Translations under genes and position numbers: made by a program
Part shown: positions 1,166 through 24,647 of the stretch, one piece after another
How the letters are laid out: every line of letters begins with the position of its first letter
How positions within the stretch are numbered: the first letter of the stretch is position 1
Source: a virus
Virus record (IMG/VR): IMGVR_UViG_3300014204_000586
Strand: one strand, 5' to 3'
Length of the DNA stretch: 28,320 bases
Notes under the pieces: model-generated
Told to the model about the DNA's origin: nothing
The model's input: only the letters and a program-made list of their open reading frames with translations
Database searches by the model: none

Positions 1166-1903
1166 ATGGCCGTACCTGAAGACGCTAAAGATACTTGGTT
1201 AACCGTTTTTAAGATAGACAATATTGAAATAAACGGGCTTAACCTCGATGTTATGCCAATTCCTGACGGTGAATTTGCCGACAAGAATACAAGCACATAC
1301 CAAACCGGCAGATATGCCAGATTTGGGAAAAACCAGTTTGATGCCGGAAGCGTGGACATATCCGGAATAAAGATTCCCGGTGATGCTGGACAGATTGCAC
1401 TTAAAAACGCACTTGGAGACACGAAAACACATACATTTCAAGTTATACTAACTGAGCTTGGAGTTATCTTTGAATACCAGGCTCTTGTTATGCAGTTCTC
1501 TCCTTCAAGCGAGGACAATACAGCAACCTTCACAGGCAAGCTGAAAGCATCAGGTGAATTTATCGAGACTACAAGTTATGCATCAGTCTCGAAGATCGAG
1601 ATAACTACAGCTACGGTAGTTATACCTGCAACCGTCGAAACTACCTTCCCTGACTCTGTAAGTGATGTAGTTATAACTGAACTCACCGGGACCGCTACAG
1701 AAACTATAAAAGTTACCGCTGCCTCTGCTACTTACATAGGGTATTCAGTAGACAACGGTTATACATGGACCGAACTAACTACCGCTACGATATCCGGCAG
1801 TATAGCGTTAGGTTCTGCAGGAACAGTTAAAAAAATAATAGTAAGAATTGAAGAAGAAAACAAAGCAACCAGGTTTGTAAATCTCTGGATTGGAAGAGCT
1901 TAA
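1166..1903 (+). CDS. Major tail (tube) protein with C-terminal cadherin-like beta-sandwich domain
   Basis: Tube-like N-domain (DAGSVDISG..IPGDAGQIAL, FTGKLKASG). The C-terminus (ETIKVTAASA...SGSIALG...IIVRIEEENKATRFVNLWIGRA) fits a cadherin-like sandwich. Confidence 0.8.
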   Translation: MAVPEDAKDTWLTVFKIDNIEINGLNLDVMPIPDGEFADKNTSTYQTGRYARFGKNQFDAGSVDISGIKIPGDAGQIALKNALGDTKTHTFQVILTELGVIFEYQALVMQFSPSSEDNTATFTGKLKASGEFIETTSYASVSKIEITTATVVIPATVETTFPDSVSDVVITELTGTATETIKVTAASATYIGYSVDNGYTWTELTTATISGSIALGSAGTVKKIIVRIEEENKATRFVNLWIGRA

Positions 1904-2993: not shown

Positions 2994-5096
2994 ATGGGTT
3001 TGACAGTCGGAACACTCTTAACACGGGCGGCTTTAGATGTAGACGGTGCCAGCTTCGGGAAACTTGACACTGCGATAAATAACGCAACTACTCATTTATC
3101 AAAAATGTCTACGGAGTCCCGGTTGGCTCTATCTGCAACCGTCGCAAGTGTTCCCGCTGCCATTGGTGCAATAGCGGGCGCAGGGCTCGCAGTTGCTTCT
3201 AATTTTGAGGATGCCAGTACAACCCTTACCGGGTTATATGGCAATGTTGATATAGCGCGTGAAAAGTTTCAGAACCTTTCTGCTTTTGCTGCAAAAACAC
3301 CTTTCGAGTTTCCTGAACTTCTTGACGCTACGGTAAAACTAAAAGCCTACGGTATCGAAGCAGGCGATTATCTTACCGTCCTCGGTGACACTGCAAGCGC
3401 AATGAATAAAACGCTTGATGAGTCGGTTGAGGCTTTAGCCGATGCTCAGACCGGGGAGTTTGAAAGGCTCAAAGAGTTTGGAGTTAAGGCCATAGATATT
3501 ACGAAGAAAAACGCGGAACAGTTAGGCGTATCTATGGCCGATGTCGGTAAAACTGCATTAACATATACTGACAACTACGGGAAGCAGCAAGTAAAAGTTA
3601 TTGATCGAAATAACAGAGAGGCCATAACCGCCGCTCTTGTCGGTGTAGATGGGATTTTCCAAAAGTATACCGGCGCAATGGAAGCAAGATCAAAAACTCT
3701 CTCGGGTCTCTTGTCTACATTGAAAGATAATGTAACAATGGCTCTTGCGGACCTTGTCGGCTTCGATATGGAGACAATGACCGTACAGGCAGGTTCTCTT
3801 ATGGGTGCCATTGAAAGCCTCGTTAAAGCCGGTATAGGGCTTACTAACTGGCTGACAGGCATCTCTGAACCTGCCCAAACGTTCATTACTGTAGCCGGTG
3901 CAGGCATAGCTATTACTGCCGGGCTGGCTTCAGGGTATATCCTTCTAGGGGTTGCAGCTTCAGCAGCGGCAGCAGCTCAAACAGTCCTTGGTTTTTCATT
4001 ATCGGCGGTATTGCTGCCAGTAACCGGGATCATTGCAGGACTGGCTTTACTGGCTGCCGGGCTTTATTACCTCGATGAAAAAACCGGAGTAGTCACATAC
4101 TCTTGGAACTTACTAAAAGACATATTCACTATAGTTACATCTGAAATATTACGAGCTGCCGAAATACTCCGAACAGGAGTAGGCCAGGTTATAGACTGGA
4201 TCAAAGAAAAGATAATGAGTTTGATTCCCGAGAATCTAGTATCCGGGGTTACAAGTGCCATTGACGGGATAGTAGGGCAGTTTGAAAGGCTTGGTATAAA
4301 TGTACATGAGAAAGCCGAAAACATAAGAAACGATGGTGAAACAGTCAAGACTACCGCCGATGGGATGGGTACGTCTTTCGGGAACGCTGCAACCAATGTA
4401 CAGGGCTCTAGTACTATAATGAGCTCTGCCTTTAATGTGGTTGGCTTTGATGCTAATCAAATGAGTTCTATCGTCTCCGGAGCAGGAACTAATATGCAGG
4501 GTTCCTTTTCTCAAACCGGGACAAGTGCAACGGGTATGAGCTCTTTGGTTACTTCTGCCGGAACTAATATGCAGGGTTCCTTTTCCCAAACCGGGACAAG
4601 TGCAACAGGCATGAGCTCTTTGGTTACAACTGCCGGCGGTAACATGGTTACTTCTATGAATAACGTCGGTTCATCAGCAACTCAAATGAGCAGTGACGTA
4701 TCAGCGGCAAAAACAGGAGTAGAAGCTCTTACAACATCTGTAAATATCGCCTCCGGAGCTAATCGAAGCTATGCAGCAAGTTTTAAGGACATCTCAAAAC
4801 TGTCAAGCGAGGCAGCTAGCGCAGCGGTTAGCGCATCCTCTAAGATAGGTGCAGCTTTGAAAACATCAGCCGATCAGGTGGGTAACGTTGCCAGTTTAGC
4901 CGGTAAATGGAACACAAGGGCAAAAATAGGTATAACTTCATCTGGAAGTAAAGGCACAGGAGAAGGTAACGTTAAAATCATTCCTGCAAAAACGACAACG
5001 AACAACAATACAACAAATAACACTACAATAAACATAAGTACAACTAAATCTAGCTCAAATGTCGTTTCCGATGCAAAACGGAGTGTAGGAAAGTAA
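2994..5096 (+). CDS. Tape measure protein (700 aa)
   Basis: Tape-measure motif TPFEFPELLDATVKLKAYG...LGDTASA, hydrophobic Ala/Gly segment, Ser/Thr/Gly-rich repeats, and position after the chaperones. Confidence 0.92.
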   Translation: MGLTVGTLLTRAALDVDGASFGKLDTAINNATTHLSKMSTESRLALSATVASVPAAIGAIAGAGLAVASNFEDASTTLTGLYGNVDIAREKFQNLSAFAAKTPFEFPELLDATVKLKAYGIEAGDYLTVLGDTASAMNKTLDESVEALADAQTGEFERLKEFGVKAIDITKKNAEQLGVSMADVGKTALTYTDNYGKQQVKVIDRNNREAITAALVGVDGIFQKYTGAMEARSKTLSGLLSTLKDNVTMALADLVGFDMETMTVQAGSLMGAIESLVKAGIGLTNWLTGISEPAQTFITVAGAGIAITAGLASGYILLGVAASAAAAAQTVLGFSLSAVLLPVTGIIAGLALLAAGLYYLDEKTGVVTYSWNLLKDIFTIVTSEILRAAEILRTGVGQVIDWIKEKIMSLIPENLVSGVTSAIDGIVGQFERLGINVHEKAENIRNDGETVKTTADGMGTSFGNAATNVQGSSTIMSSAFNVVGFDANQMSSIVSGAGTNMQGSFSQTGTSATGMSSLVTSAGTNMQGSFSQTGTSATGMSSLVTTAGGNMVTSMNNVGSSATQMSSDVSAAKTGVEALTTSVNIASGANRSYAASFKDISKLSSEAASAAVSASSKIGAALKTSADQVGNVASLAGKWNTRAKIGITSSGSKGTGEGNVKIIPAKTTTNNNTTNNTTINISTTKSSSNVVSDAKRSVGK
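4485..4634 (+). repeat. 75-bp (25-aa) tandem duplication in the tape measure gene
   Basis: GGAACTAATATGCAGGGTTCCTTTTC.. starts at both 4485 and 4560. Protein reads AGTNMQGSFSQTGTSATGMSSLVT(S/T) twice. Confidence 0.95.
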
Positions 5097-5171: not shown

Positions 5172-8100
5172 ATGGCAGGTGAAACAAGATTTATAACTTG
5201 GTCAGGCGGTCCGGCAGGCGATTATATTACCGACGGTACGCACGACGAAGCCGAAATTAACACGGCTATGAGCTGGTTGAATTCAAACCCAGGCAATATA
5301 TTAATAATGCGTGGAACTGGAAACGTAAACAGTCCCCATTATTATAATATCGAAGCTCAGGTAAAAATAGCAAATAACATGAAGTGGACCGCAGAAGCCG
5401 GCGTTATGCTATGGGTACCTGATGGGGCGTGTGGAACTAATACTACTAATTGCGTTTTTCCGAACGGTACGCCAGTCATAGGCCAACTTAATACATATGT
5501 TGCACATGTTGAAATATCAGGGTTTTCTATCTCCGGAAACTGCAATAATCAAAGTACTGTCTTAGGATATGCTCACGGGGTTTTGCAGTCTACAGGCTCC
5601 GGAGTAGAAAGGCTATTTGGATTCAAAGGCGTAAGCGGGACCGGCTCCAAATGTACAGACATCTATATCCATGATATACACGCCATGGATTCATGGGGCG
5701 AGTTTTTACATCTGATGTACGGCAGGGGAGAGATTAAGATATCTAACTGCCTAGCTGAAAATCATCAGCATGATTGTGTTATGTTAATAGAGGTCGATGG
5801 AGACGGAAACGAGATAACCGACTCTACCTTCTACGGGATAACTGACGGATGCGTAAGGCTTGATAACTGTAAAAAGATACCTGTTCACGATTGTTATATG
5901 TTAGCATACTCCGGGACCCATAATAACGGTGCTACTAAATACGGTCATAACGGTATGCAAATAGCAAACGAGAGTAACAAAACACTCCTAACAAATGAAA
6001 TATCGGTTTATAACTGCTATTTCGAAGGTCCTAATCTTGACGGTATTTGGCTTAATGACCAGTTGAAAACAGCAGGCTCAGCCGATCAGTCAGTATATAT
6101 TCATCATTGCAAGTTTTCTAATCAGATTGCATGGGCAGATTGGGCTTATTGGTCAAGTGGAATTACTTTAGGCGCATGGGGTAACGGTGTAAAAATCGAG
6201 AGCTGTACATTTGACGGATGTTACGCCAACGGAATACAGGTTTATAGCGTCATATCCTCCGCCCAAACCCATAAACTAGAAATCGAAAACTGTAATATTA
6301 TTAATACAGTTGGGTTAAGGGCAGGTTCTTCTAATGGTCCATCGGTTCAGGGATGGGGACTTTATAACGCGGTTCCTACAAAAATGTCAATAGTTGCCAA
6401 AAATAATTACTTAGCTGGCAACATAAACGGAGATTATAAAAATGTAACTCCTGTTACCTCATCTACTTCTTTGATATCAGGAGCAGAGCCGGGCGGAGGC
6501 TCGACTATTGATGATGATGATTCAGATTATGTCCCGCCTGAATCATCCGGAGTTTATATTCCTGCATCTGCCTCTATAATCGATACTGACTTCAAATATG
6601 TACCTAGAGCGGATGATGATTTCAGAAGTTATATAAACGGCGTTCCGTTCGAAATGGTTAGATTTCTGCCTGTAGGCCAGCGCGGTATAAGTGAATCTGA
6701 AAGCCCTTCTTTCGAAGGAACTAATTTAGGGGATCTCGGGCTCAAAGGCTGCGAAATTGAACTCACGGGTTTAGCTGCCGATATCGACGAGTTGTATAAA
6801 ATAAAGGCTGCCTTTGCACAAGAGGGCAGGTCATTCTTAGAGCTTGGAGGTTCTAGGAAAGGATACTTTGTTAGCGGTCTAATGTCAACTCATGGATCAA
6901 CTGAAGATATGAGTCAGGGAGACATAGCCGGCGAAAACATCATATTCAATGCTACAGTTAAAACAGAATTCCCTTATCAAGAAAAGATGATTAAGGCAGT
7001 AAGGGACCACTATGTCAATAGTTCTTGTATAATCTCATCCGATGATATACACAGTGGCAATGTAGTTAAGAATAATAACTTTTTAAATTGGTCAGTGCCT
7101 CAAAACCTCGTATGGGAAACTATACCCGGTCCTTCATCGGCTGACCTTCAGAATGTTAAATACTCTCCTGAACTTCAAATGTGGATGGCAGTCGGAAACA
7201 GTGTTTCAGGAGCAGACCCGCAGTGTATTATCTCCGGACGTTCGGTTATTCCGGATCATAGCGGATATAAAAATCATGGGCTGGCTTCCGGAGCTTGGGA
7301 AAGCGTGACCGGCGGCGGGGTGTCATTCAATGGTATTGATTCATACGTAGCAATACCAGACCCGGAAATAACAAACACTTCCAATTATTCATTATACAGC
7401 CGGTTTAAAGTTGGTGCTTCTGGTGTTATTCAATCTTTAGTAGGTATAGCGAAATCAGATTCAAACGTTCAAATGTGTAATATTACCCTGAATACCTCAA
7501 ATCAATTATTACTACAGCATAGGGATGATGCTGGACATATTGCGAATGTATCCTCATCAATTAATGTAAATGATGGGTTAGTTCATGAGGCAGTAGGCAC
7601 CAGAGACGGAGACACGTTTACTATATACCTCGATGGGGTCCAGGTCGGGCAGGTAATTAACTCCACTATCGGGACCACAACCACGGATAGAGCCGCAATT
7701 GGATGTTTACCGAGGCTAAGCTCCCGGTATTTATTTACCGGGGAAATATACGAAACTAGGATATTCTCGGATACTATCCCATCTGGAAGTATATCTACTG
7801 CCGGCACCAGGACAACAAACCGTGTAAGCTCCTTTAACAGTCCAACAACTGAAGAGCCGGGTAATTCTTGGATAACTCCGCCTTGGTGGTCTGCCTTATC
7901 AAGTAACCGGAATAACTGGAAAGGTCTTGAGTGGTGCCCAGATTGGGGCATGTGGGTTATTTCGTCGGTAACTTCCTATTTAGGGGTTGATGATAAAATT
8001 GCCTATACTGCCGATGGGGCAGAATGGTTTATAGTAACTACTCCGAGCGACTCGAATTCATGGGCTAACCTTCTATTTATTCCGCCTAACTCGACGGTTC

Positions 8101-10784
8101 CGAATGGCCGGCTTATGGCATTTGCTCAAAGCGGCACAGGTAACAGGATTTTATATTCAGATAATCAGTTATCATCCTATACAACCATAGCAGGACCCGC
8201 CGACGTACTTTCTAATAACTGGTTAAGCTCTGCATATTCCCAGGAACTTAACCGTGTTGTTGTTGTAGCTTTCGGCGGATCAGCTTCTAAAAGGGTTATG
8301 TATTCCGATGATTGCGGATCTAACTTTATTTCTGTGGTTAGTCCTGCTCAGCAATGGACCGGCGTTATATGGGCAAAAATGCCGAGTATGTTTATGGCTT
8401 GTTCCCAGGACGGGACCCAACAAATCATGACATGTGCCGACGGTATAAGCCCGTGGACACTTCAAACAACCCCATACGCTGACGCTGTAACGCCCAGTGG
8501 GTCTAGTACTGTCGTTCGTACTCTTGCCGCTCAGTCAAATGTAGGATGGAATTACACTACGTTAGCGACAGATTACAGCGCAAGTGTAAACCCAATGATT
8601 GAATTTGTCCTGCCTGCCTCCGGGCTTACTGCCGGGAATCATTACCGTATAGATAATGTACATGCAAGACTTCGGATAGTTAGCGCAGGTCCAACAGCGT
8701 ACTTAAAAGTAACTGCTCAGACAGCGACTATATCCGAAACAACTATTAAAGAATGGACCGAAACCTCAACAGTTTACCAGGACAAAAGCTATGATTGTGT
8801 TTTCGAAGGAGCAGCAGACGAGGCCGTAACAATCAGGTTTTATCTTAAAACTTCCAATGCATCAATTAGAGCCGGAGCCGATAACATGGGTTATGACGCT
8901 TCGGAAATGACAAGCGGCTCATCTACGATAACATATTCCCGTAATCTATGGCGAGATATTTGTTATTCGGATGAGTTGAACCTCGCGGTAGTTGTCTGCT
9001 ATGACACATCATTAACTAATAATGTCATGTATTCTCAGACCGGGACTAATTGGTATATGGTCCGATCGATAGCTGCAGCTCAGTGGTGGTCAGTTGAATA
9101 TTCACCGGAAACTAGAACATTCATTGCAGTAGGTCAAACAGGCTCAGAAAGGGTTATGTTAGCCAGGGGTTACGGTGAACTTGTTGATATAGCGCCAGAC
9201 AACTGGACAAAGGTAACCGATGGCCAGGAGGCAAGCGACGAGCATACAAATGGCAGTGTTTATACCTACATGATTAAAGGTAATGGAGTAGACGAAAACC
9301 CAGGATACATTTATCAAAAATTACCGTTTGACTCCATGTATGACGCAGGCGAGCTTTATATTTTAAAATCGTCGGCTTATGTAGAGGGTTTGACCTCCGG
9401 AGCTTTCGCGGTTGACATCTTTGCAGGTGGAACAATCGTAAAGGAATTGATATGGGACGCTAACACCAGCGAAATAGACACAAAGGAAATACGGTTTATC
9501 TTTGATACCATACCGCTAAATGTTTATGCCCGGATACGTGGAATAAATACACCAAATGACGGAGCGTATTTTTATAACTCGAACATTATAGTATCAAAGG
9601 TTCAGGAATATGAAAATGACCAGGTCGGCGCGCCAATAGCGACCTTTGGATATAGGGACGCAACACCAAATATTAAATTAAAGGGTGTGGGCACTAATAC
9701 AATGTCCGCAGACACAAACCGGATAATATCAGACAAGGATTACGATACTTATACAACTACCTCAACAAGTTATGGAGATCCAATAAAAACAATAACCTTG
9801 CCTGCCCTTACAGGCGGCTCTAAATATCAGTTAGATGCTTTATCATTTGACTTTAAAACCAATAGCACGGGAGCGTATATATATTGTAAAACTACAATTC
9901 AGGCACCTTCGCTTTTTGGTGGAGCTGAGCGCGATATAAGCATGTATACAACCAACGGGACCAGCTATGAATATAGGCGTTACAAACTGCCTTATCCTTT
10001 GATCTCAGAGACTAACGAGCAGGTAATATTTAGGTGGTATATCCGGATCTCAAAAACCGGTTACACTGGATATGTCAAAAATGCATGGTATCAGTTTACA
10101 GAGTTGCTAGATGTAAACACTACTAAAAATGTTCCAATCTACCTATATAATACGAATGATTCCCGGATAGTTTTAACATGCTGTGATAGTCTCCCGCCAG
10201 GTTACCAGGTAGAAATAAATAAAAACGGTACCGGTAGCTATAGGTATATAGAATCATTTGCAGATGATAATTTCATATCAAATGCTTATGAGGTAGTAGG
10301 TGGTGTTTCCAGAGACGAAACAGAACAAACGCTTTATATACCCGATGGAGGTTCAATAACATTTCCAATGAGTACCTATTATCCTGTTTCCGGAGTTCCG
10401 TTTATAAAAATGCTCGTTGTATCGGGAATACCTCAGATTTCTATAGCTGTGGATACTGGAAGCGGACCCGGCACTTTTTACGAAGTTGATTCTAACACTT
10501 CTGTATCTGTAGAGAATGCCGAAGTTATCAGACTTCTTGACAATGCAGCAGACTTAACACTGAGGGGTGAAAGGAAGTTCTATGTAAAGATATCCAACTT
10601 GTCCGGGGCTTCTTGTACATTCGGTCAAATGCTTATTTACTCAACTCTTGACACTATCGACGCAAGAAGGTTAAAAATATATTCTGCAATTAATCCCAAT
10701 GCAATAGCGGTAGAGGTCGGCGGTGATGGTAAATGCAGTGCCGTATTATCAATAGACTACAGGGATACCCAAATAATAACATGA
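5172..10784 (+). CDS. Giant multidomain tail-tip protein (1870 aa): N-terminal right-handed beta-helix plus an evolved Dit-like scaffold carrying CBM-like, beta-propeller, LamG and other inserted domains
   Basis: Sits directly after the tape measure gene and before the hub. Shows beta-helix repeats, a LamG motif (TIYLDGVQVG...FTGEIYETRIF), seven W/Y-S-x-E-L blade repeats, and Dit-like segments (PNIKLKG; LPPGYQVEIN; NAIAVEV...IDYRD). Confidence 0.8.
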   Translation: MAGETRFITWSGGPAGDYITDGTHDEAEINTAMSWLNSNPGNILIMRGTGNVNSPHYYNIEAQVKIANNMKWTAEAGVMLWVPDGACGTNTTNCVFPNGTPVIGQLNTYVAHVEISGFSISGNCNNQSTVLGYAHGVLQSTGSGVERLFGFKGVSGTGSKCTDIYIHDIHAMDSWGEFLHLMYGRGEIKISNCLAENHQHDCVMLIEVDGDGNEITDSTFYGITDGCVRLDNCKKIPVHDCYMLAYSGTHNNGATKYGHNGMQIANESNKTLLTNEISVYNCYFEGPNLDGIWLNDQLKTAGSADQSVYIHHCKFSNQIAWADWAYWSSGITLGAWGNGVKIESCTFDGCYANGIQVYSVISSAQTHKLEIENCNIINTVGLRAGSSNGPSVQGWGLYNAVPTKMSIVAKNNYLAGNINGDYKNVTPVTSSTSLISGAEPGGGSTIDDDDSDYVPPESSGVYIPASASIIDTDFKYVPRADDDFRSYINGVPFEMVRFLPVGQRGISESESPSFEGTNLGDLGLKGCEIELTGLAADIDELYKIKAAFAQEGRSFLELGGSRKGYFVSGLMSTHGSTEDMSQGDIAGENIIFNATVKTEFPYQEKMIKAVRDHYVNSSCIISSDDIHSGNVVKNNNFLNWSVPQNLVWETIPGPSSADLQNVKYSPELQMWMAVGNSVSGADPQCIISGRSVIPDHSGYKNHGLASGAWESVTGGGVSFNGIDSYVAIPDPEITNTSNYSLYSRFKVGASGVIQSLVGIAKSDSNVQMCNITLNTSNQLLLQHRDDAGHIANVSSSINVNDGLVHEAVGTRDGDTFTIYLDGVQVGQVINSTIGTTTTDRAAIGCLPRLSSRYLFTGEIYETRIFSDTIPSGSISTAGTRTTNRVSSFNSPTTEEPGNSWITPPWWSALSSNRNNWKGLEWCPDWGMWVISSVTSYLGVDDKIAYTADGAEWFIVTTPSDSNSWANLLFIPPNSTVPNGRLMAFAQSGTGNRILYSDNQLSSYTTIAGPADVLSNNWLSSAYSQELNRVVVVAFGGSASKRVMYSDDCGSNFISVVSPAQQWTGVIWAKMPSMFMACSQDGTQQIMTCADGISPWTLQTTPYADAVTPSGSSTVVRTLAAQSNVGWNYTTLATDYSASVNPMIEFVLPASGLTAGNHYRIDNVHARLRIVSAGPTAYLKVTAQTATISETTIKEWTETSTVYQDKSYDCVFEGAADEAVTIRFYLKTSNASIRAGADNMGYDASEMTSGSSTITYSRNLWRDICYSDELNLAVVVCYDTSLTNNVMYSQTGTNWYMVRSIAAAQWWSVEYSPETRTFIAVGQTGSERVMLARGYGELVDIAPDNWTKVTDGQEASDEHTNGSVYTYMIKGNGVDENPGYIYQKLPFDSMYDAGELYILKSSAYVEGLTSGAFAVDIFAGGTIVKELIWDANTSEIDTKEIRFIFDTIPLNVYARIRGINTPNDGAYFYNSNIIVSKVQEYENDQVGAPIATFGYRDATPNIKLKGVGTNTMSADTNRIISDKDYDTYTTTSTSYGDPIKTITLPALTGGSKYQLDALSFDFKTNSTGAYIYCKTTIQAPSLFGGAERDISMYTTNGTSYEYRRYKLPYPLISETNEQVIFRWYIRISKTGYTGYVKNAWYQFTELLDVNTTKNVPIYLYNTNDSRIVLTCCDSLPPGYQVEINKNGTGSYRYIESFADDNFISNAYEVVGGVSRDETEQTLYIPDGGSITFPMSTYYPVSGVPFIKMLVVSGIPQISIAVDTGSGPGTFYEVDSNTSVSVENAEVIRLLDNAADLTLRGERKFYVKISNLSGASCTFGQMLIYSTLDTIDARRLKIYSAINPNAIAVEVGGDGKCSAVLSIDYRDTQIIT

Positions 10785-10793
10785 GGTCATAAC

Positions 10794-11963
10794 ATGATAA
10801 GATTTTATGACTACTCAGCAAGAATACAGAAGCTCACAGGGGAGGTTTATTATCCTCCTGTAGTTTCATTTAGTACAGTCGATAACCTGCCATTTCAGAA
10901 CTCTCCGGAGGCATCTATAGAGGTCATAGCGAATGAGAATTTATCAGGCATACAAAACATTACCCCAATAGAATTTGATGATATCATAAGGCTGAGCGTA
11001 TCTATCAGGTATCATCCGAAGGATGTACCAGTATATGTTAATCTATTTGAGGGAAAAGTTCAGAACATATCTAAAAATTATGGAGAACTGAACACGGTAA
11101 CACTTCAATGTGTAGGCCATATTTATGAAGTGTTCGACACTCTGGAAGTATTCGGCCATTCATGGACAAGTACAGTAGACGCAAAAACAATTATATCAAC
11201 CCTTATGAGCGAGTCTCATAAGCTCAGCCGGGTAGAGTATGACGCTTCGTATGTTGATTCCGGTGTGACACTTCCAGAATTTAACGTCGAAGCTGAAAAA
11301 ATGTTTCTGAATCAGGTACTTTCTAAAATAGAAGAAATATCCGGGTATACAAAATACTTCGATACTGTCCAAATATACGATAGATGGGGCATACTGCAAC
11401 ATATTTACCTTACATTTAAATCAATATCAGCAGCGGTAACGCATAAATACGAAATTAACGAAGGTTCTAACAGGCTTATTGCTGCCTCGGTTGACTCCAT
11501 AGGCGAGGATGTAAAAACCTTTAGGTATGTCGTTGGAGGAACCGACGAGGTAACGGGGACCACATACCACGCCGACGTATCAGACTCGGTGGCAGTTTCT
11601 ATACATGGTCCTCGTTATGCTCTTGATACCTACTCGTGGATCATGTCAAACTCATTATGTACTCAGGTAGCACAGGGTTTACTAGATGGTTCAAAAGATC
11701 CATATGTCTCTATATCATGCACTTTAGAGGGAACACCAGACGCGCACAAGGGAGACCTTGTTAAAGTTGATTTTCACACACTGGATTTAAAGGGAGTTGC
11801 AGTATCCGGGAATTACCGCGTCGCAAAGGTGCAGCATCGTTTATCTGAAACAGGAGCTTATACAACTCAGTTAGACCTGAACAGGGTAAAAATGACTCCA
11901 ACGGAATATACGATAAAGTACATTTCACAGAAATTAAATACTGTATTGACAAACCAGGCATAA
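10794..11963 (+). CDS. Baseplate hub / Tal-like (gp27 / Mu gp44 / late control D-like) protein
   Basis: C-terminal GTPDAHKGDLVKV...GNYRVAKVQHRLSETGAYTTQLDL is the hub-family signature. 389 aa, follows the Dit-like gene. Confidence 0.75.
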   Translation: MIRFYDYSARIQKLTGEVYYPPVVSFSTVDNLPFQNSPEASIEVIANENLSGIQNITPIEFDDIIRLSVSIRYHPKDVPVYVNLFEGKVQNISKNYGELNTVTLQCVGHIYEVFDTLEVFGHSWTSTVDAKTIISTLMSESHKLSRVEYDASYVDSGVTLPEFNVEAEKMFLNQVLSKIEEISGYTKYFDTVQIYDRWGILQHIYLTFKSISAAVTHKYEINEGSNRLIAASVDSIGEDVKTFRYVVGGTDEVTGTTYHADVSDSVAVSIHGPRYALDTYSWIMSNSLCTQVAQGLLDGSKDPYVSISCTLEGTPDAHKGDLVKVDFHTLDLKGVAVSGNYRVAKVQHRLSETGAYTTQLDLNRVKMTPTEYTIKYISQKLNTVLTNQA

Positions 11964-14350: not shown

Positions 14351-14641
14351 ATGACCACGAACAGCTATAACGATACCCTGAATATAATTTTCGGGGATAA
14401 CCGACGGGTAAACATCTTGCGTTTACTTTATGAAATGAGTACGCAGGGAGACCCAATATATATAAGAAAAATAGTTACGAGGACGGGATACACTCCCCAG
14501 ACAGTTACAAATCATATAAACGAGCTTGAAAAGTATGGAGTGATAAAACGAACACAGCGCGAAGGTTCGCCGACAAAATACATAGACCTCAATGAAAATG
14601 TTGAGGGCGTGATAGATCTTATTCAAGGTTTGAAACTATGA
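14351..14641 (+). CDS. Winged-HTH transcription regulator (ArsR/MarR-like)
   Basis: RRVNILRLL...IRKIVTRTGYTPQTVTNHINELEKYGVIKR...TKYIDLN is a typical wHTH. GAGGT SD. Confidence 0.85.
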   Translation: MTTNSYNDTLNIIFGDNRRVNILRLLYEMSTQGDPIYIRKIVTRTGYTPQTVTNHINELEKYGVIKRTQREGSPTKYIDLNENVEGVIDLIQGLKL

Positions 14642-15975
14642 TCGACTGTTCAGGCATCTCCACAGCTTCACAACTTCAAAAGTACTTTGATAAATACGGA
14701 GCTGAAACATATCAATTTAGTAAGAATCAAAAGATTGCTGTAGATACTCGGATGAATATAAACGGGGCGTATAACCTAAAGGGGTTTTCTGCATATGCAG
14801 ATATGCCCATTTTCAAGTTAAACCCGAGAGTATCCGAAAAAGACTTCGGTATACAGGAAGCAATTATAACCATCAATGGGGCAGGACCTTCTATAGAAGG
14901 TATCCGCTTTGATGGGAATGACGTAAACCAACTATTTGAAAGAGGAGATGGTTACCACAACTTCATAAAACTATACAAGACTACAGGCTTCAGAGCAGAC
15001 CGGTTATATGTCGAGAACTCACTCGGGGATGGAATCCGGGCACAGTTTGCGGATGATACCGAAATATCAAGAATGGGAGTTCATCAATGTGGGCATGATG
15101 GAATATACTTGCAGGAATCTAAAAATGTAATTGTTTCGGGATGTGTGTTTCATATCCGGACCAATTGTGCTACAAGGTTCAGAGCTTGTGAGAATGCCCA
15201 ATTTTATAATAATTGGGTTGAAAATCAAATCCATACAGGCATAAGCACAGGGCCAGGTCTCCAACTTGAGAATTCAACAACCTCGACAACTGCAAAAGAT
15301 TACAGCATATTTAACAACTACTTCAAAAACACTGATGGTCCGGGAATATGGGCTATTAATACATATGCTGCAAGTCCGGACGCTGCAACAGGCTTGAACA
15401 TCTACCAAAACACGTTTGAGAATTGCGGCCAGGGAGGGCACTATAAGAATGTCACAAGTACAGGCGGTATTTGTGTCGATGGTTGGAAGGCAGGAATCTA
15501 TCAAAACCTTTTCACGGGTTGCAGCTCTGGCGTGACTATAGGTCCTTGGGTTTCAATAACTCCGGCTGGTTCCGGGTATCAAGTAACAGTTAAAAATAAT
15601 ATGTTTGCTCACTGTGCAGCAGGCAAGCAGGTCTATTCATCGGCTGGTACAGGCATAGACAAAACTTCTAAAGTTAATACAAAAGTTTCATGTTCTGAAA
15701 ATTGGTTCTATGAAAATAAAAATGACTATTTCGGGACGGGAGAGACGACACAGATAAACCCATACCTAACGCTAAATAATCATCTATATGTAATAGGTGA
15801 TAAATCAAGCGTCGAGGGTAGGGGTATAGGCGCAAAAGGTGTAAACAACACATATGAGTCAACCGATGTTGAAAAGGTCGAAATTAGAATATCAAAGATT
15901 CTGAAGGTAAGATACTCGGATAAATACCCGAATGTTCTTCCTGAAGGTGTGATAATATGGAAGCGTAAATCATGA
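14638..15975 (+). CDS. Free-standing right-handed beta-helix protein, disaggregatase-related-like (putative polysaccharide depolymerase)
   Basis: Motifs GDGYHNFI, NSLGDGIR, GHDGIY, RTNCATR, GPGLQLE, GPGIWA, GGICVDGW resemble Methanosarcina disaggregatase-related beta-helix domains (recalled, not searched). Confidence 0.7.
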   Translation: MIDCSGISTASQLQKYFDKYGAETYQFSKNQKIAVDTRMNINGAYNLKGFSAYADMPIFKLNPRVSEKDFGIQEAIITINGAGPSIEGIRFDGNDVNQLFERGDGYHNFIKLYKTTGFRADRLYVENSLGDGIRAQFADDTEISRMGVHQCGHDGIYLQESKNVIVSGCVFHIRTNCATRFRACENAQFYNNWVENQIHTGISTGPGLQLENSTTSTTAKDYSIFNNYFKNTDGPGIWAINTYAASPDAATGLNIYQNTFENCGQGGHYKNVTSTGGICVDGWKAGIYQNLFTGCSSGVTIGPWVSITPAGSGYQVTVKNNMFAHCAAGKQVYSSAGTGIDKTSKVNTKVSCSENWFYENKNDYFGTGETTQINPYLTLNNHLYVIGDKSSVEGRGIGAKGVNNTYESTDVEKVEIRISKILKVRYSDKYPNVLPEGVIIWKRKS

Positions 15976-20653: not shown

Positions 20654-20659
20654 TATCGT

Positions 20660-20706
20660 TTTCCAGTGGAAACTAAGCTATTTATATACTAAAAGTTCCA
20701 GTGGAA
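20660..20706. promoter_or_regulatory. TATA box (TTTATATA 20681-20688) flanked by two palindromic operators TTCCAGTGGAA
   Basis: TTTCCAGTGGAAA at 20660-20672 and TTCCAGTGGAA at 20696-20706, centres 35 bp apart. Confidence 0.7.
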
Positions 20707-22431: not shown

Positions 22432-22968
22432 ATGGGTAAAATATTAACTACGAATATGCGCCGAAAAATGGAAAAGGAAGCAAGAAGAAGAGAAGCAGTT
22501 AGGCTATATTTCGACGAAAATAAAAATCAAAAAGAAATAGCTCTGGAATTGGGTATATCAGTACCTACAGTTTCAGTATATCTTAAACAGACCCGCGAAG
22601 CATGGGCAGAAAGGGCAAACGTTACAATCAATGACCATGTTAACCGGGAGCTAGCAAATATTGAAAAGCAGGAAGCTAATATATATCAATGGCTAGACTT
22701 CTTTAAGCTGGACCCGGACGACCCACAACAAACATCCAGAAACTCACCCGAGGCGAGGAAATGGCTTGAGTTATGGATCAAGTTAGCAGCCAGAAAGGCC
22801 GCGTTATTAGGATTAGATAAGGCTAAAAAGTTCGAAGTTGAATCCGGGCAACCTGTAATAATAAACCTGCTTCCTGTAGATGGAAGCCAGGACGACAGGC
22901 CGGAAATAATAGAGGGTAAATTTACGGAAGTAGACGAAGAAACAGAAGGGGACGAAGAGGACTATTAA
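22432..22968 (+). CDS. terS: Terminase small subunit (HTH-containing)
   Basis: N-terminal HTH (NQKEIALELGISVPTVSVYLKQ), LLGLDKAKKFEV motif, acidic tail, coupled to the large subunit by TAATG. Confidence 0.75.
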   Translation: MGKILTTNMRRKMEKEARRREAVRLYFDENKNQKEIALELGISVPTVSVYLKQTREAWAERANVTINDHVNRELANIEKQEANIYQWLDFFKLDPDDPQQTSRNSPEARKWLELWIKLAARKAALLGLDKAKKFEVESGQPVIINLLPVDGSQDDRPEIIEGKFTEVDEETEGDEEDY

Positions 22969-24293
22969 TGAATAGTGAGCTTGAAAGTTTCAAAGGTGGA
23001 TTGCCAGGGCACAGGTATATTCAAAGGAATACTTGTTTCTGGAAACACTTTGAAAAACCACAAAAAACAAAAATATTTTACGGTGGGGCGGGCTCCGGTA
23101 AGTCCCTTTCAATAGCTCAATATTTTTTAATGAAACTGTGCTCAAACGATGGCCGAAGAAGGGCAATATTAAGAAAGACATTTCCCTCAATGGCTACTAC
23201 TACATATTTAGTCTTGAAAGATATATTGACTGATTGGGGAGTTCCTTATAAGGAAAATAAAACAAAGCATTTTTTCGAAGTAGGCAGGAATAGACTTTAT
23301 TACCTATCCCTTGACAATCCGGAGAAAATAAAGGGCGGCGAGTTCGAAGACATATGGTTAGAAGAAAGCACGGAATTTACAAAAGATGATTATCTTCAGC
23401 TTAACATCAGGCTATCCAGGGACCGCCTAAGCGAAAATGTACATTTGTTTATGTCCTTTAACCCCATAGATGCTAATCATTGGTGTGTGAAGCTTGTCGA
23501 AGAGGCATTAAACGATAGGAAAAACTTTCTGGTAATGCATTCGACTTATCATGATAATATCAAATTCCTGAGTAATACATTCATAAGAAGTCTTGAAAAG
23601 CTCATCAATACCGATGATAATTATTATAGGATTTATTGTTTAGGCGAGCCAGGTATTCTTAAAAATATCATATACTCAAATTATATAATTGAAAATCCTG
23701 TAGAATGGCCGGATTATATCTATTCGGCTCCTACAGCTTATGGTCTTGACTTCGGGTTTAACCATCCTACGGTATTATCTCAGATCTATATGTTTGATGG
23801 GGTCCCTTACATTATTGAAAAGTACTGTAGGGAGCAGAAAACAACCGAGGAGCTTTATATTTGGATGAATGAAAATGAAATTTCACATACTTCCGAAATA
23901 TGGGCAGATTCGGCCAGACCGGACCAGATAGAATATCTATGTGAAAGTAGGGAAATTGGAGGAATTCAATATCAGGGCTTCAATGTTCTGCCAGCCAAAA
24001 AAGATGTAATAGCAGGCATTGACTCGGTAAAGTCTCGGAGGCTCCATATATCGTCAGAGTCTCCTAGGATCATATCCGAAATAAAGGGCTATAAATACCG
24101 CGAAAATAAAGATGGTGTGGTCCTCGAGGAGCCAGTAAAGTTTAAGGACGATGCAATGGACAGTATTAGATATTGTATCTTTTCTGCCGATTGGATAGAG
24201 GGCGATATAATTACAGAAAACCGTCCAAAAATGAAAAATTCACCTTCAGATGTTTACCAAATCGATAGCGGGAAAGGCGTTTACCAAATGTAA
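22968..24293 (+). CDS. terL: Terminase large subunit (PBSX-like)
   Basis: Walker A YGGAGSGKS, Walker B IWLEESTEF, coupling motif SFNP, RNase H nuclease GLDFGFNHP and DDAMDSIRY. Confidence 0.95.
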   Translation: MNSELESFKGGLPGHRYIQRNTCFWKHFEKPQKTKIFYGGAGSGKSLSIAQYFLMKLCSNDGRRRAILRKTFPSMATTTYLVLKDILTDWGVPYKENKTKHFFEVGRNRLYYLSLDNPEKIKGGEFEDIWLEESTEFTKDDYLQLNIRLSRDRLSENVHLFMSFNPIDANHWCVKLVEEALNDRKNFLVMHSTYHDNIKFLSNTFIRSLEKLINTDDNYYRIYCLGEPGILKNIIYSNYIIENPVEWPDYIYSAPTAYGLDFGFNHPTVLSQIYMFDGVPYIIEKYCREQKTTEELYIWMNENEISHTSEIWADSARPDQIEYLCESREIGGIQYQGFNVLPAKKDVIAGIDSVKSRRLHISSESPRIISEIKGYKYRENKDGVVLEEPVKFKDDAMDSIRYCIFSADWIEGDIITENRPKMKNSPSDVYQIDSGKGVYQM

Positions 24294-24341: not shown

Positions 24342-24647
24342 ATGGAAGTAAAATTAACCGAGCAGAGTATTATAAATATCATATCTATGGCGGGCTTTAT
24401 AGCGTGTGTTATCGCCTTTATTATAAAGGGGTCTCTAACTCCGGAGTATGTGTTACCCTTGTTCCTGACCTATGTATTACCGTCGCCAATAAGTGACAGG
24501 ATGAAGAACACAAAGATATCAAAAAACACATCAGAAGCCTCTACAGCTTCAGGAGTTAACCAGGTAACAACCAACAATAATGAAGTTGAAATCGAAAGCG
24601 GAGTAATTGAAATTACCGACGGCTCTTTTGAGGGAAAGGCAGAATAA
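24342..24647 (+). CDS. Small membrane protein, holin-like (101 aa)
   Basis: One strong and one shorter hydrophobic segment at the N-terminus, charged hydrophilic C-terminus. Confidence 0.55.
   Translation: MEVKLTEQSIINIISMAGFIACVIAFIIKGSLTPEYVLPLFLTYVLPSPISDRMKNTKISKNTSEASTASGVNQVTTNNNEVEIESGVIEITDGSFEGKAE

Follow-up and report, generated by a model that had tools for sequence, protein, structure and literature searches.

A disaggregatase-related beta-helix fused to a tail-module protein in a virus linked to Methanosarcina barkeri: a candidate matrix-glycan depolymerase

The viral record IMGVR_UViG_3300014204_000586 from IMG/VR (28,320 nucleotides (nt); "the window" denotes this whole stretch of DNA) encodes, directly after its tape measure gene, a protein of 1870 amino acids (aa) at 5172..10784 (+ strand) that begins with a right-handed parallel beta-helix of the disaggregatase-related family (5172..6497, + strand; aa 1-442). 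This domain is probably a tail-borne depolymerase of a matrix glycan, most likely methanochondroitin. In the mechanism proposed here, aa 1-442 would form a monomer-type right-handed beta-helix, tied by a flexible acidic linker of approximately 18 residues to a large multi-domain tail-tip protein, and would be carried on the virion. When it meets a Methanosarcina aggregate, most likely one of M. barkeri, it would make a local cut in the heteropolysaccharide outside the cells, which is most likely methanochondroitin, using a groove predicted to be lined by H200, R229 and Q263, with D231, D296 and W336 in addition in the viral clade; the cut matrix would then let the tail tip reach the surface layer (S-layer) and the membrane. 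Virion incorporation, catalysis as opposed to mere binding, the substrate, and the choice between hydrolysis and beta-elimination at glucuronate are all matters that we infer.

Fold, family and conserved residues of the N-terminal domain

The fold was modelled with AlphaFold2. A run from the single sequence was unusable, with a predicted local distance difference test score (pLDDT) of 37.8, and was replaced by a model built on a 31-sequence alignment, which reached a mean pLDDT of 89.7 and a predicted template modelling score of 0.90 and depicts aa 1 to approximately 442 as a continuous all-beta coil with an N-terminal capping helix at aa 25-38. The first-pass annotation, made from the letters of the DNA, had drawn a parallel beta-helix over the first ~435 aa (to nt 6480), which agrees with a modelled coil ending near residue 442, and the motifs it quoted are all present, namely GDYITDGTHDEAEINTAM at aa 16, NPG at 39, HQHD at 198, GIWL at 291, SGITLGAW at 329, FDGC at 347 and NINGDYKN at 417. 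When the model was used in a structural search, more than 400 PDB chains were returned at Z >= 8, all of them beta-helices. The nearest solved structures are the A-modules of AlgE4 (Z 39.0, root-mean-square deviation 2.0 Å over 343 residues) and AlgE6 (Z 38.8), followed by an alginate epimerase/lyase (Z 34.7), the Vibrio cholerae biofilm polysaccharide lyase RbmB (Z 33.9, 17% identity), GH28 polygalacturonases (Z 31-33), phage tailspikes (Z 29-32) and PfbA (Z 29.8). The top structural relatives all act on uronate-containing polymers, consistent with methanochondroitin or another substrate that contains glucuronate. The Methanosarcina disaggregatase Dag dissolves the sugar matrix by which the cells are held together in clumps, and RbmB is likewise a matrix-dispersal enzyme. 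By sequence, phmmer of aa 1-460 against the PDB sequences gave no match, and AlgE4 was reached by the family profile only (E 4.8e-8); AlgE4 and the epimerase/lyase (E ~1.5e-7) were the only PDB families matched by sequence profile.

The proposed membership of the disaggregatase-related family was upheld by Pfam, in which aa 275-429 match PF08480 (Disaggr_assoc; profile positions 2-151 of 194) at 51.6 bits and E 1.4e-13, a match that is far beyond chance and above the curated gathering cut-off of 22.6 bits. Relatives P0002-P0013 all carry PF08480 together with PF13229. When 1.84 billion cluster representatives were searched exhaustively with phmmer, only 90 related clusters were recovered. Some 15 of them share the architecture of the window protein, with lengths of 1330-1880 aa and the domain occupying residues 1 to ~450; the others are mostly stand-alone proteins of ~465 aa. 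Whole-domain matches (query aa ~10-430, 25-33% identity) were present in 48 of 151 genomes of Methanosarcinaceae, the family of a Methanosarcinales metagenome-assembled genome (MAG) that holds a related provirus. These matches speak against best homologues unrelated to disaggregatase-like proteins, the outcome named at first pass as fatal to the proposal, and bear out the first-pass statement that Methanosarcina genomes encode many related beta-helix proteins, here with PF08480 and PF06848. Nine of the ten cellular open reading frames (ORFs) scanned contain Beta_helix and PF08480 (146-310 bits), and most add at least one PF06848/CBM96 (DNRLRE) repeat (276-584 bits) and Ig-like domains; across many Methanosarcina species, such proteins are entered at NCBI as "disaggregatase related repeat-containing protein".

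BLASTP aligned viral aa 11-425 with residues 17-389 of a 1077-aa cluster of M. mazei (P0146) at 23% identity and E 1e-11. This cluster, which takes in BAB59139.1 (an early DDBJ record) and MSMAL_0160 of M. mazei LYC, is probably the published Dag, going by the length of that enzyme (1077 aa), the DNRLRE repeats and the type of accession. The tail domain shares with Dag and the cellular disaggregatase-related proteins (PF13229, PF08480 and PF06848/CBM96) a homologous whole-length beta-helix, PF08480, the residues H200, R229 and Q263, the GIW motifs and a Methanosarcina setting, but it is 23-33% identical to them and forms a separate clade, and the viral protein, devoid of DNRLRE/CBM96 and Ig domains, is linker-fused to a tail-module part of ~1400 aa.

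A maximum-likelihood tree built from 35 domains has a viral-type clade, supported at 99 in the Shimodaira-Hasegawa-like approximate likelihood ratio test, that unites the long fused forms with the stand-alone ones and an M. acetivorans gene; the cellular Dag-like clade has a support of 92. The tree and the level of identity point to the tail domain being an old, separate branch of the disaggregatase family. The view that the virus had acquired a host matrix-remodelling domain consequently holds as to the family and is not supported as to a simple host capture: a recent capture of a host gene is ruled out by the separate supported clade and the 23-33% identity, and, with a gene of M. acetivorans placed within the viral clade, transfer may have gone in either direction. 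This gene belongs to a chromosomal cluster in M. acetivorans and M. siciliae (721-743 aa, domain C-terminal, 33% identity, non-viral neighbourhood), and the 743-aa M. acetivorans member may represent a virus-to-host transfer that was domesticated. The latter (M. acetivorans AE010299; L004 10001-12232) has three N-terminal repeats of ~100 aa ahead of its C-terminal beta-helix and is adjoined by transposase genes.

The candidate active-site groove lies in the stretch 5769..5960 (+ strand), picked out from the conservation table, which holds H200 (5769-5771), R229 (5856-5858) and Q263 (5958-5960). These residues are invariant or nearly so throughout the viral clade, the cellular clade, the Dag cluster, the M. 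acetivorans protein and a second window ORF with PF08480. Also constant are D25 and N30 of the cap motif and an Asn ladder (N241, N282, N313, N345, N374 and N412), both of which look structural, and D231, N266, D296 and W336-G337-x-G339 are invariant within the viral clade, over sequences down to 28-32% identity, with D231, D296 and W336-G339 being conserved in that clade only. In the model, R229, Q263 and W293 fall in the central strands of three rungs that follow one another (strands 228-231, 262-266 and 292-296), with H200 and D201 in the turn leading into the strand of the preceding rung, a layout that would fit a groove for the substrate along one side of the helix.

Tail-module setting and host link

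The gene of the 1870-aa protein is flanked directly upstream by the tape measure protein gene (2994..5096, + strand; PHROGs tape-measure families, E 2.6e-15 and others) and downstream by the gene of a 389-aa tail/baseplate-hub-like protein (10794..11963, + strand; phrog_52 and phrog_400 tail protein, phrog_196 baseplate hub). This arrangement recurs among relatives: a tape-measure homologue ends just before the domain-starting ORF in 18 of 20 IMG/VR viral contigs (28-100% identity), the remaining two having the domain in stand-alone form, and wherever these contigs extend far enough, a major-tail homologue lies upstream too and a long ORF of ~1640-1800 aa is followed by a homologue of the 389-aa protein. 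The same gene order is found at 60% identity in a 31-kb JGI contig (L006), and the same order of tail genes in the provirus on a 124-kb contig of the Methanosarcinales MAG, where cellular genes (Trm5/TYW2, enolase and permeases) stand on one side and terminase, Mu-F and RecT genes lie beyond. A copy with 99-100% identity is present on an independent IMG/VR contig.

In siphovirus-type tails, the distal tail protein is normally encoded by the gene after the tape measure. Gene order would accordingly place the 1870-aa protein at the distal tail or tail tip, which stays a positional assignment because a distal-tail domain after the linker could not be confirmed. As for the earlier claim that the domain is mounted at the tail tip, a conserved tail-module position just behind the tape measure is supported, and the tip location itself derives from gene order.

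Following the beta-helix, the open ORF continues with an acidic, Gly/Ser/Asp-rich flexible linker (aa 443-460; 6498..6551, + strand; pLDDT < 50), a conserved region, a Laminin_G_3/concanavalin-like (LamG) domain at aa 721-871 (7332-7784, + strand; E 2.1e-14), which is the sole Pfam domain besides PF08480, and a large C-terminal part. At approximately aa 1100-1230, the family profile weakly matches (E 0.023) PDB 2ZEY, a chain named "S-layer associated multidomain endoglucanase", probably a carbohydrate-binding module (CBM). Both matches suggest that several glycan-binding modules stand behind the enzyme, and the rest of the tail protein presumably does the targeting in place of the missing CBM96/DNRLRE repeats. 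The protein resembles the "evolved" distal tail proteins of siphophages in its gene position directly after the tape measure, its very large multi-domain make-up and its LamG/CBM-like modules, but differs in having no Pfam, PHROG or PDB-profile match to them. PHROGs returned nothing significant for the whole protein or its parts, a "tail spike protein" match appeared in only two of 15 relatives (E 3.8e-4), and tblastn of the whole 1870-aa protein against 50,697 phage records gave no match. To our knowledge, no evolved distal tail protein has been described with an enzyme fused to its N-terminus.

The host link comes from a BLAST comparison in which 177 Methanosarcinaceae genomes were searched with the window; it yielded six short matches (31-39 nt, 94-100% identity), all of them in one genome of 4,533,209 bp assigned to M. 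barkeri MS, one of whose proteins is recorded as M. barkeri MS/227. The match regions are two arrays of clustered regularly interspaced short palindromic repeats (CRISPR) with the 37-nt repeat GTTTCAATCCTTGTTTTAGTGGATCTTGCTCACGAAT; four of the six matches sit exactly in spacer positions, and the other two just past the inspected stretch of the first array. One protospacer lies inside the 1870-aa gene itself (7837-7872, a 97% match to an M. barkeri MS spacer), the others being located at 2781-2811, 3509-3547, 20656-20689, 24046-24081 and 24421-24456. The six spacers link the virus to a host at species level and point to a strain that can be cultured for experiments. M. barkeri belongs to the Type I species, forms aggregates and bears methanochondroitin (PMC12369344). 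Aggregates protect cells of M. mazei from the S-layer-binding virus MetSV (PMC12369344), and given that aggregated cells resist that virus, the proposed enzyme would have an obvious use.

Weighing the function of the domain

Several observations weigh against a methanochondroitin depolymerase carried at the tail tip. The viral PF08480 score is weak next to those of cellular proteins (51.6 vs 240-310 bits), the identity to the probable Dag cluster is only 23%, and the Dag-type DNRLRE/CBM96 repeats (PF06848 and PF24517) were absent from the 1870-aa protein in Pfam searches up to E 0.1. No match to Dit or another tail component was obtained for aa 455-720 with Pfam (E up to 10), PHROGs, the PDB profile search or the ESM Atlas. 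The candidate active site is assigned from residue conservation and not from a comparison with catalytic residues of Dag. Disaggregatase-related proteins are also plentiful in M. acetivorans, and the family need not be specific to methanochondroitin if it abounds in species said to be without that polymer. Finally, a second PF08480 enzyme of the same virus (14638..15975, + strand), nearer to the cellular clade, could be the real matrix enzyme.

The comparison with AlgE4 adds a further point. Its catalytic residues are Tyr149, Asp152 and His154 together with Asp178, and the catalytic loop YGFDPH (residues 149-154) is an insertion relative to the family profile in the hidden Markov model alignment, where the register of a beta-helix can slip by a rung and a structural superposition would be firmer. 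No DPH motif, and with it no AlgE-type loop of the form YG(F/I)DPH(D/E), was found in aa 1-442. The absence of the loop from the family indicates that the catalytic machinery is not simply that of AlgE4. The AlgE-type A-modules, the epimerase/lyases and RbmB are the nearest solved structures and act at uronate residues, but the present family differs from them in being without the AlgE4 loop, in having the conserved H/R/Q residues on later rungs and in an identity of 10-17%.

An active tail-borne glycanase or lyase directed at another substrate, either the S-layer N-glycans or another exopolysaccharide, is unlikely in our estimation. In its favour are the separation of the viral clade from the cellular Dag-like clade and the presence in the virus of a second PF08480 enzyme that groups with the cellular clade. 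The closest cellular relative occurs in M. acetivorans and M. siciliae, and Type II species such as M. acetivorans are generally without a methanochondroitin layer (PMC12369344). Set against these points are the CRISPR-linked host, which is a Type I aggregate former, the H/R/Q residues held in common with the probable Dag cluster of M. mazei, and the nearest solved relatives, whose action on uronate polymers fits a glucuronate-containing substrate.

A still less probable reading, to which we would give little credence, is that the beta-helix is a non-catalytic adhesin or receptor-binding module for matrix or S-layer glycans, in the manner of PfbA. PfbA is indeed among the structural matches, the catalytic residues of the family are undefined and the AlgE4 catalytic loop is not conserved, but a set of polar residues is kept without exception among viral-clade sequences of 28-74% identity and is common to the enzyme-bearing cellular clade, and mere binding would not carry a tail through a thick matrix. 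It is very improbable that the protein lies outside the virion and is set free at lysis to aid the escape of progeny from the aggregate, for although the remainder of the protein has no sequence match to known tail proteins, its gene sits between the tape measure and hub-like tail genes in an order that recurs in 18 of the 20 related viral contigs, its LamG and other binding-type domains are typical of tail-tip adhesion devices, and a separate free-standing enzyme cassette is present for a soluble role.

A tail-borne matrix depolymerase would have its closest functional counterparts in the tailspike and tail-fibre depolymerases of phages (Sf6, HK620, the CBA120 tailspike proteins, phi29 gp12, K5A lyase and the Klebsiella capsule depolymerases), with which the window domain shares the right-handed beta-helix, a tail-module gene and a proposed path-clearing role through extracellular polysaccharide. 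It differs from them in having no detectable sequence relation, an archaeal host and monomeric enzymes as its best structural relatives. The geometry is also reversed: in tailspikes the helix comes after an N-terminal domain that binds the particle, whereas in the window protein the helix is N-terminal and the rest of the tail protein follows. The virion-depolymerase idea of phages is probably realised here in an archaeal virus, with an enzyme of the disaggregatase family and an unusual N-terminal fusion geometry.

How archaeal viruses cross the envelopes of their hosts is largely unknown (PMC10791045). The head turret protein of Haloferax tailed virus 1 (HFTV1) has a polysaccharide-deacetylase-like domain, and according to the HFTV1 authors no structural protein of an archaeal virus with a predicted carbohydrate-degrading domain had been reported until 2025 (PMC12494034). 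Both are structural proteins of archaeal tailed viruses with a predicted carbohydrate-modifying domain, the window protein being so placed by gene order, but the turret protein sits on the capsid and not in the tail module, has another fold and chemistry, and is unrelated to host matrix-remodelling enzymes. Our literature search found no published account of a disaggregatase-type or comparable depolymerase on the tail of an archaeal virus, and the only review in it that names both disaggregatase and virus draws no link between them (PMC12369344).

The fuller proposal, which we advance tentatively and regard as somewhat doubtful, is that the domain is a tail-borne depolymerase of methanochondroitin, which would be the first from an archaeal virus. 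It would represent a viral branch of the family in its own right, mounted in several copies through N-terminal fusion to a protein in the distal-tail position, and would admit a siphovirus-like virus to M. barkeri aggregates that exclude other viruses. If true, a virion enzyme that opens the methanochondroitin coat would explain the access of tailed viruses to aggregated cells, and placing an enzyme at the front of the protein encoded after the tape measure would be a new way to arm a tail tip. The compact domain of 442 residues, divergent from the only characterised Dag, would be useful for the mechanism of the family (hydrolase versus lyase) and could be used to break up Methanosarcina aggregates for genetic work. 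Such aggregates play a central part in anaerobic digesters and in methane emission.

Further features of the window and its relatives

The second member of the family in the window (445 aa) is a free-standing beta-helix/PF08480 protein assigned by Pfam and belonging to a different subfamily. It is ~25% identical to the tail domain (over 130 aa) and sits on a long branch with the cellular Dag-like clade in the 35-domain tree; the identity and the different clade rule it out as a duplicate of the tail domain. Its ORF is followed by one of 189 aa (15972) in the segment 14638-16541, and the pair is kept in contigs L006 and L010. The 166-aa partner of a stand-alone homologue in L002 showed no detectable relation to the 189-aa ORF.

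The gene content of the window is that of a head-tailed virus. Besides the genes described above, there are a major tail protein gene (1166..1903, + strand; phrog_158 major tail protein in PHROGs, E 1.2e-7), two small ORFs in the tail-chaperone position and, further along, a small helix-turn-helix/terminase-small-like ORF, a terminase large subunit (22968-24293), an ORF of 533 aa where the portal gene would be expected, and a Mu-F-like protein.

Some contigs with close relatives of the domain (L007, L008/L002 and L009) are filed under MAGs of Bacteroidales, Fermentimonas/"Pacebacteria" and Parabacteroides, respectively. Small ORFs abound in them, and they also encode a dCMP deaminase, an intein-containing RtcB with HNH and another PF08480 protein; this content looks viral, and they are probably mis-binned Methanosarcina virus contigs. 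Among the cellular entries, WP_235284434.1 (P0251; MalE, partial, M. mazei; 919 aa) combines the maltose-binding domains PF13416 and PF01547 with PF08480 and PF06848, and looks like a recombinant construct of maltose-binding protein and disaggregatase within an assembly, not a natural gene.

The tape-measure ORF upstream of the homologous tail protein ranges from ~635 to >1330 aa among relatives in IMG/VR (L049, L051, L053, L054 and L057), a spread that implies very different tail lengths within one group sharing the enzyme-bearing tip protein.

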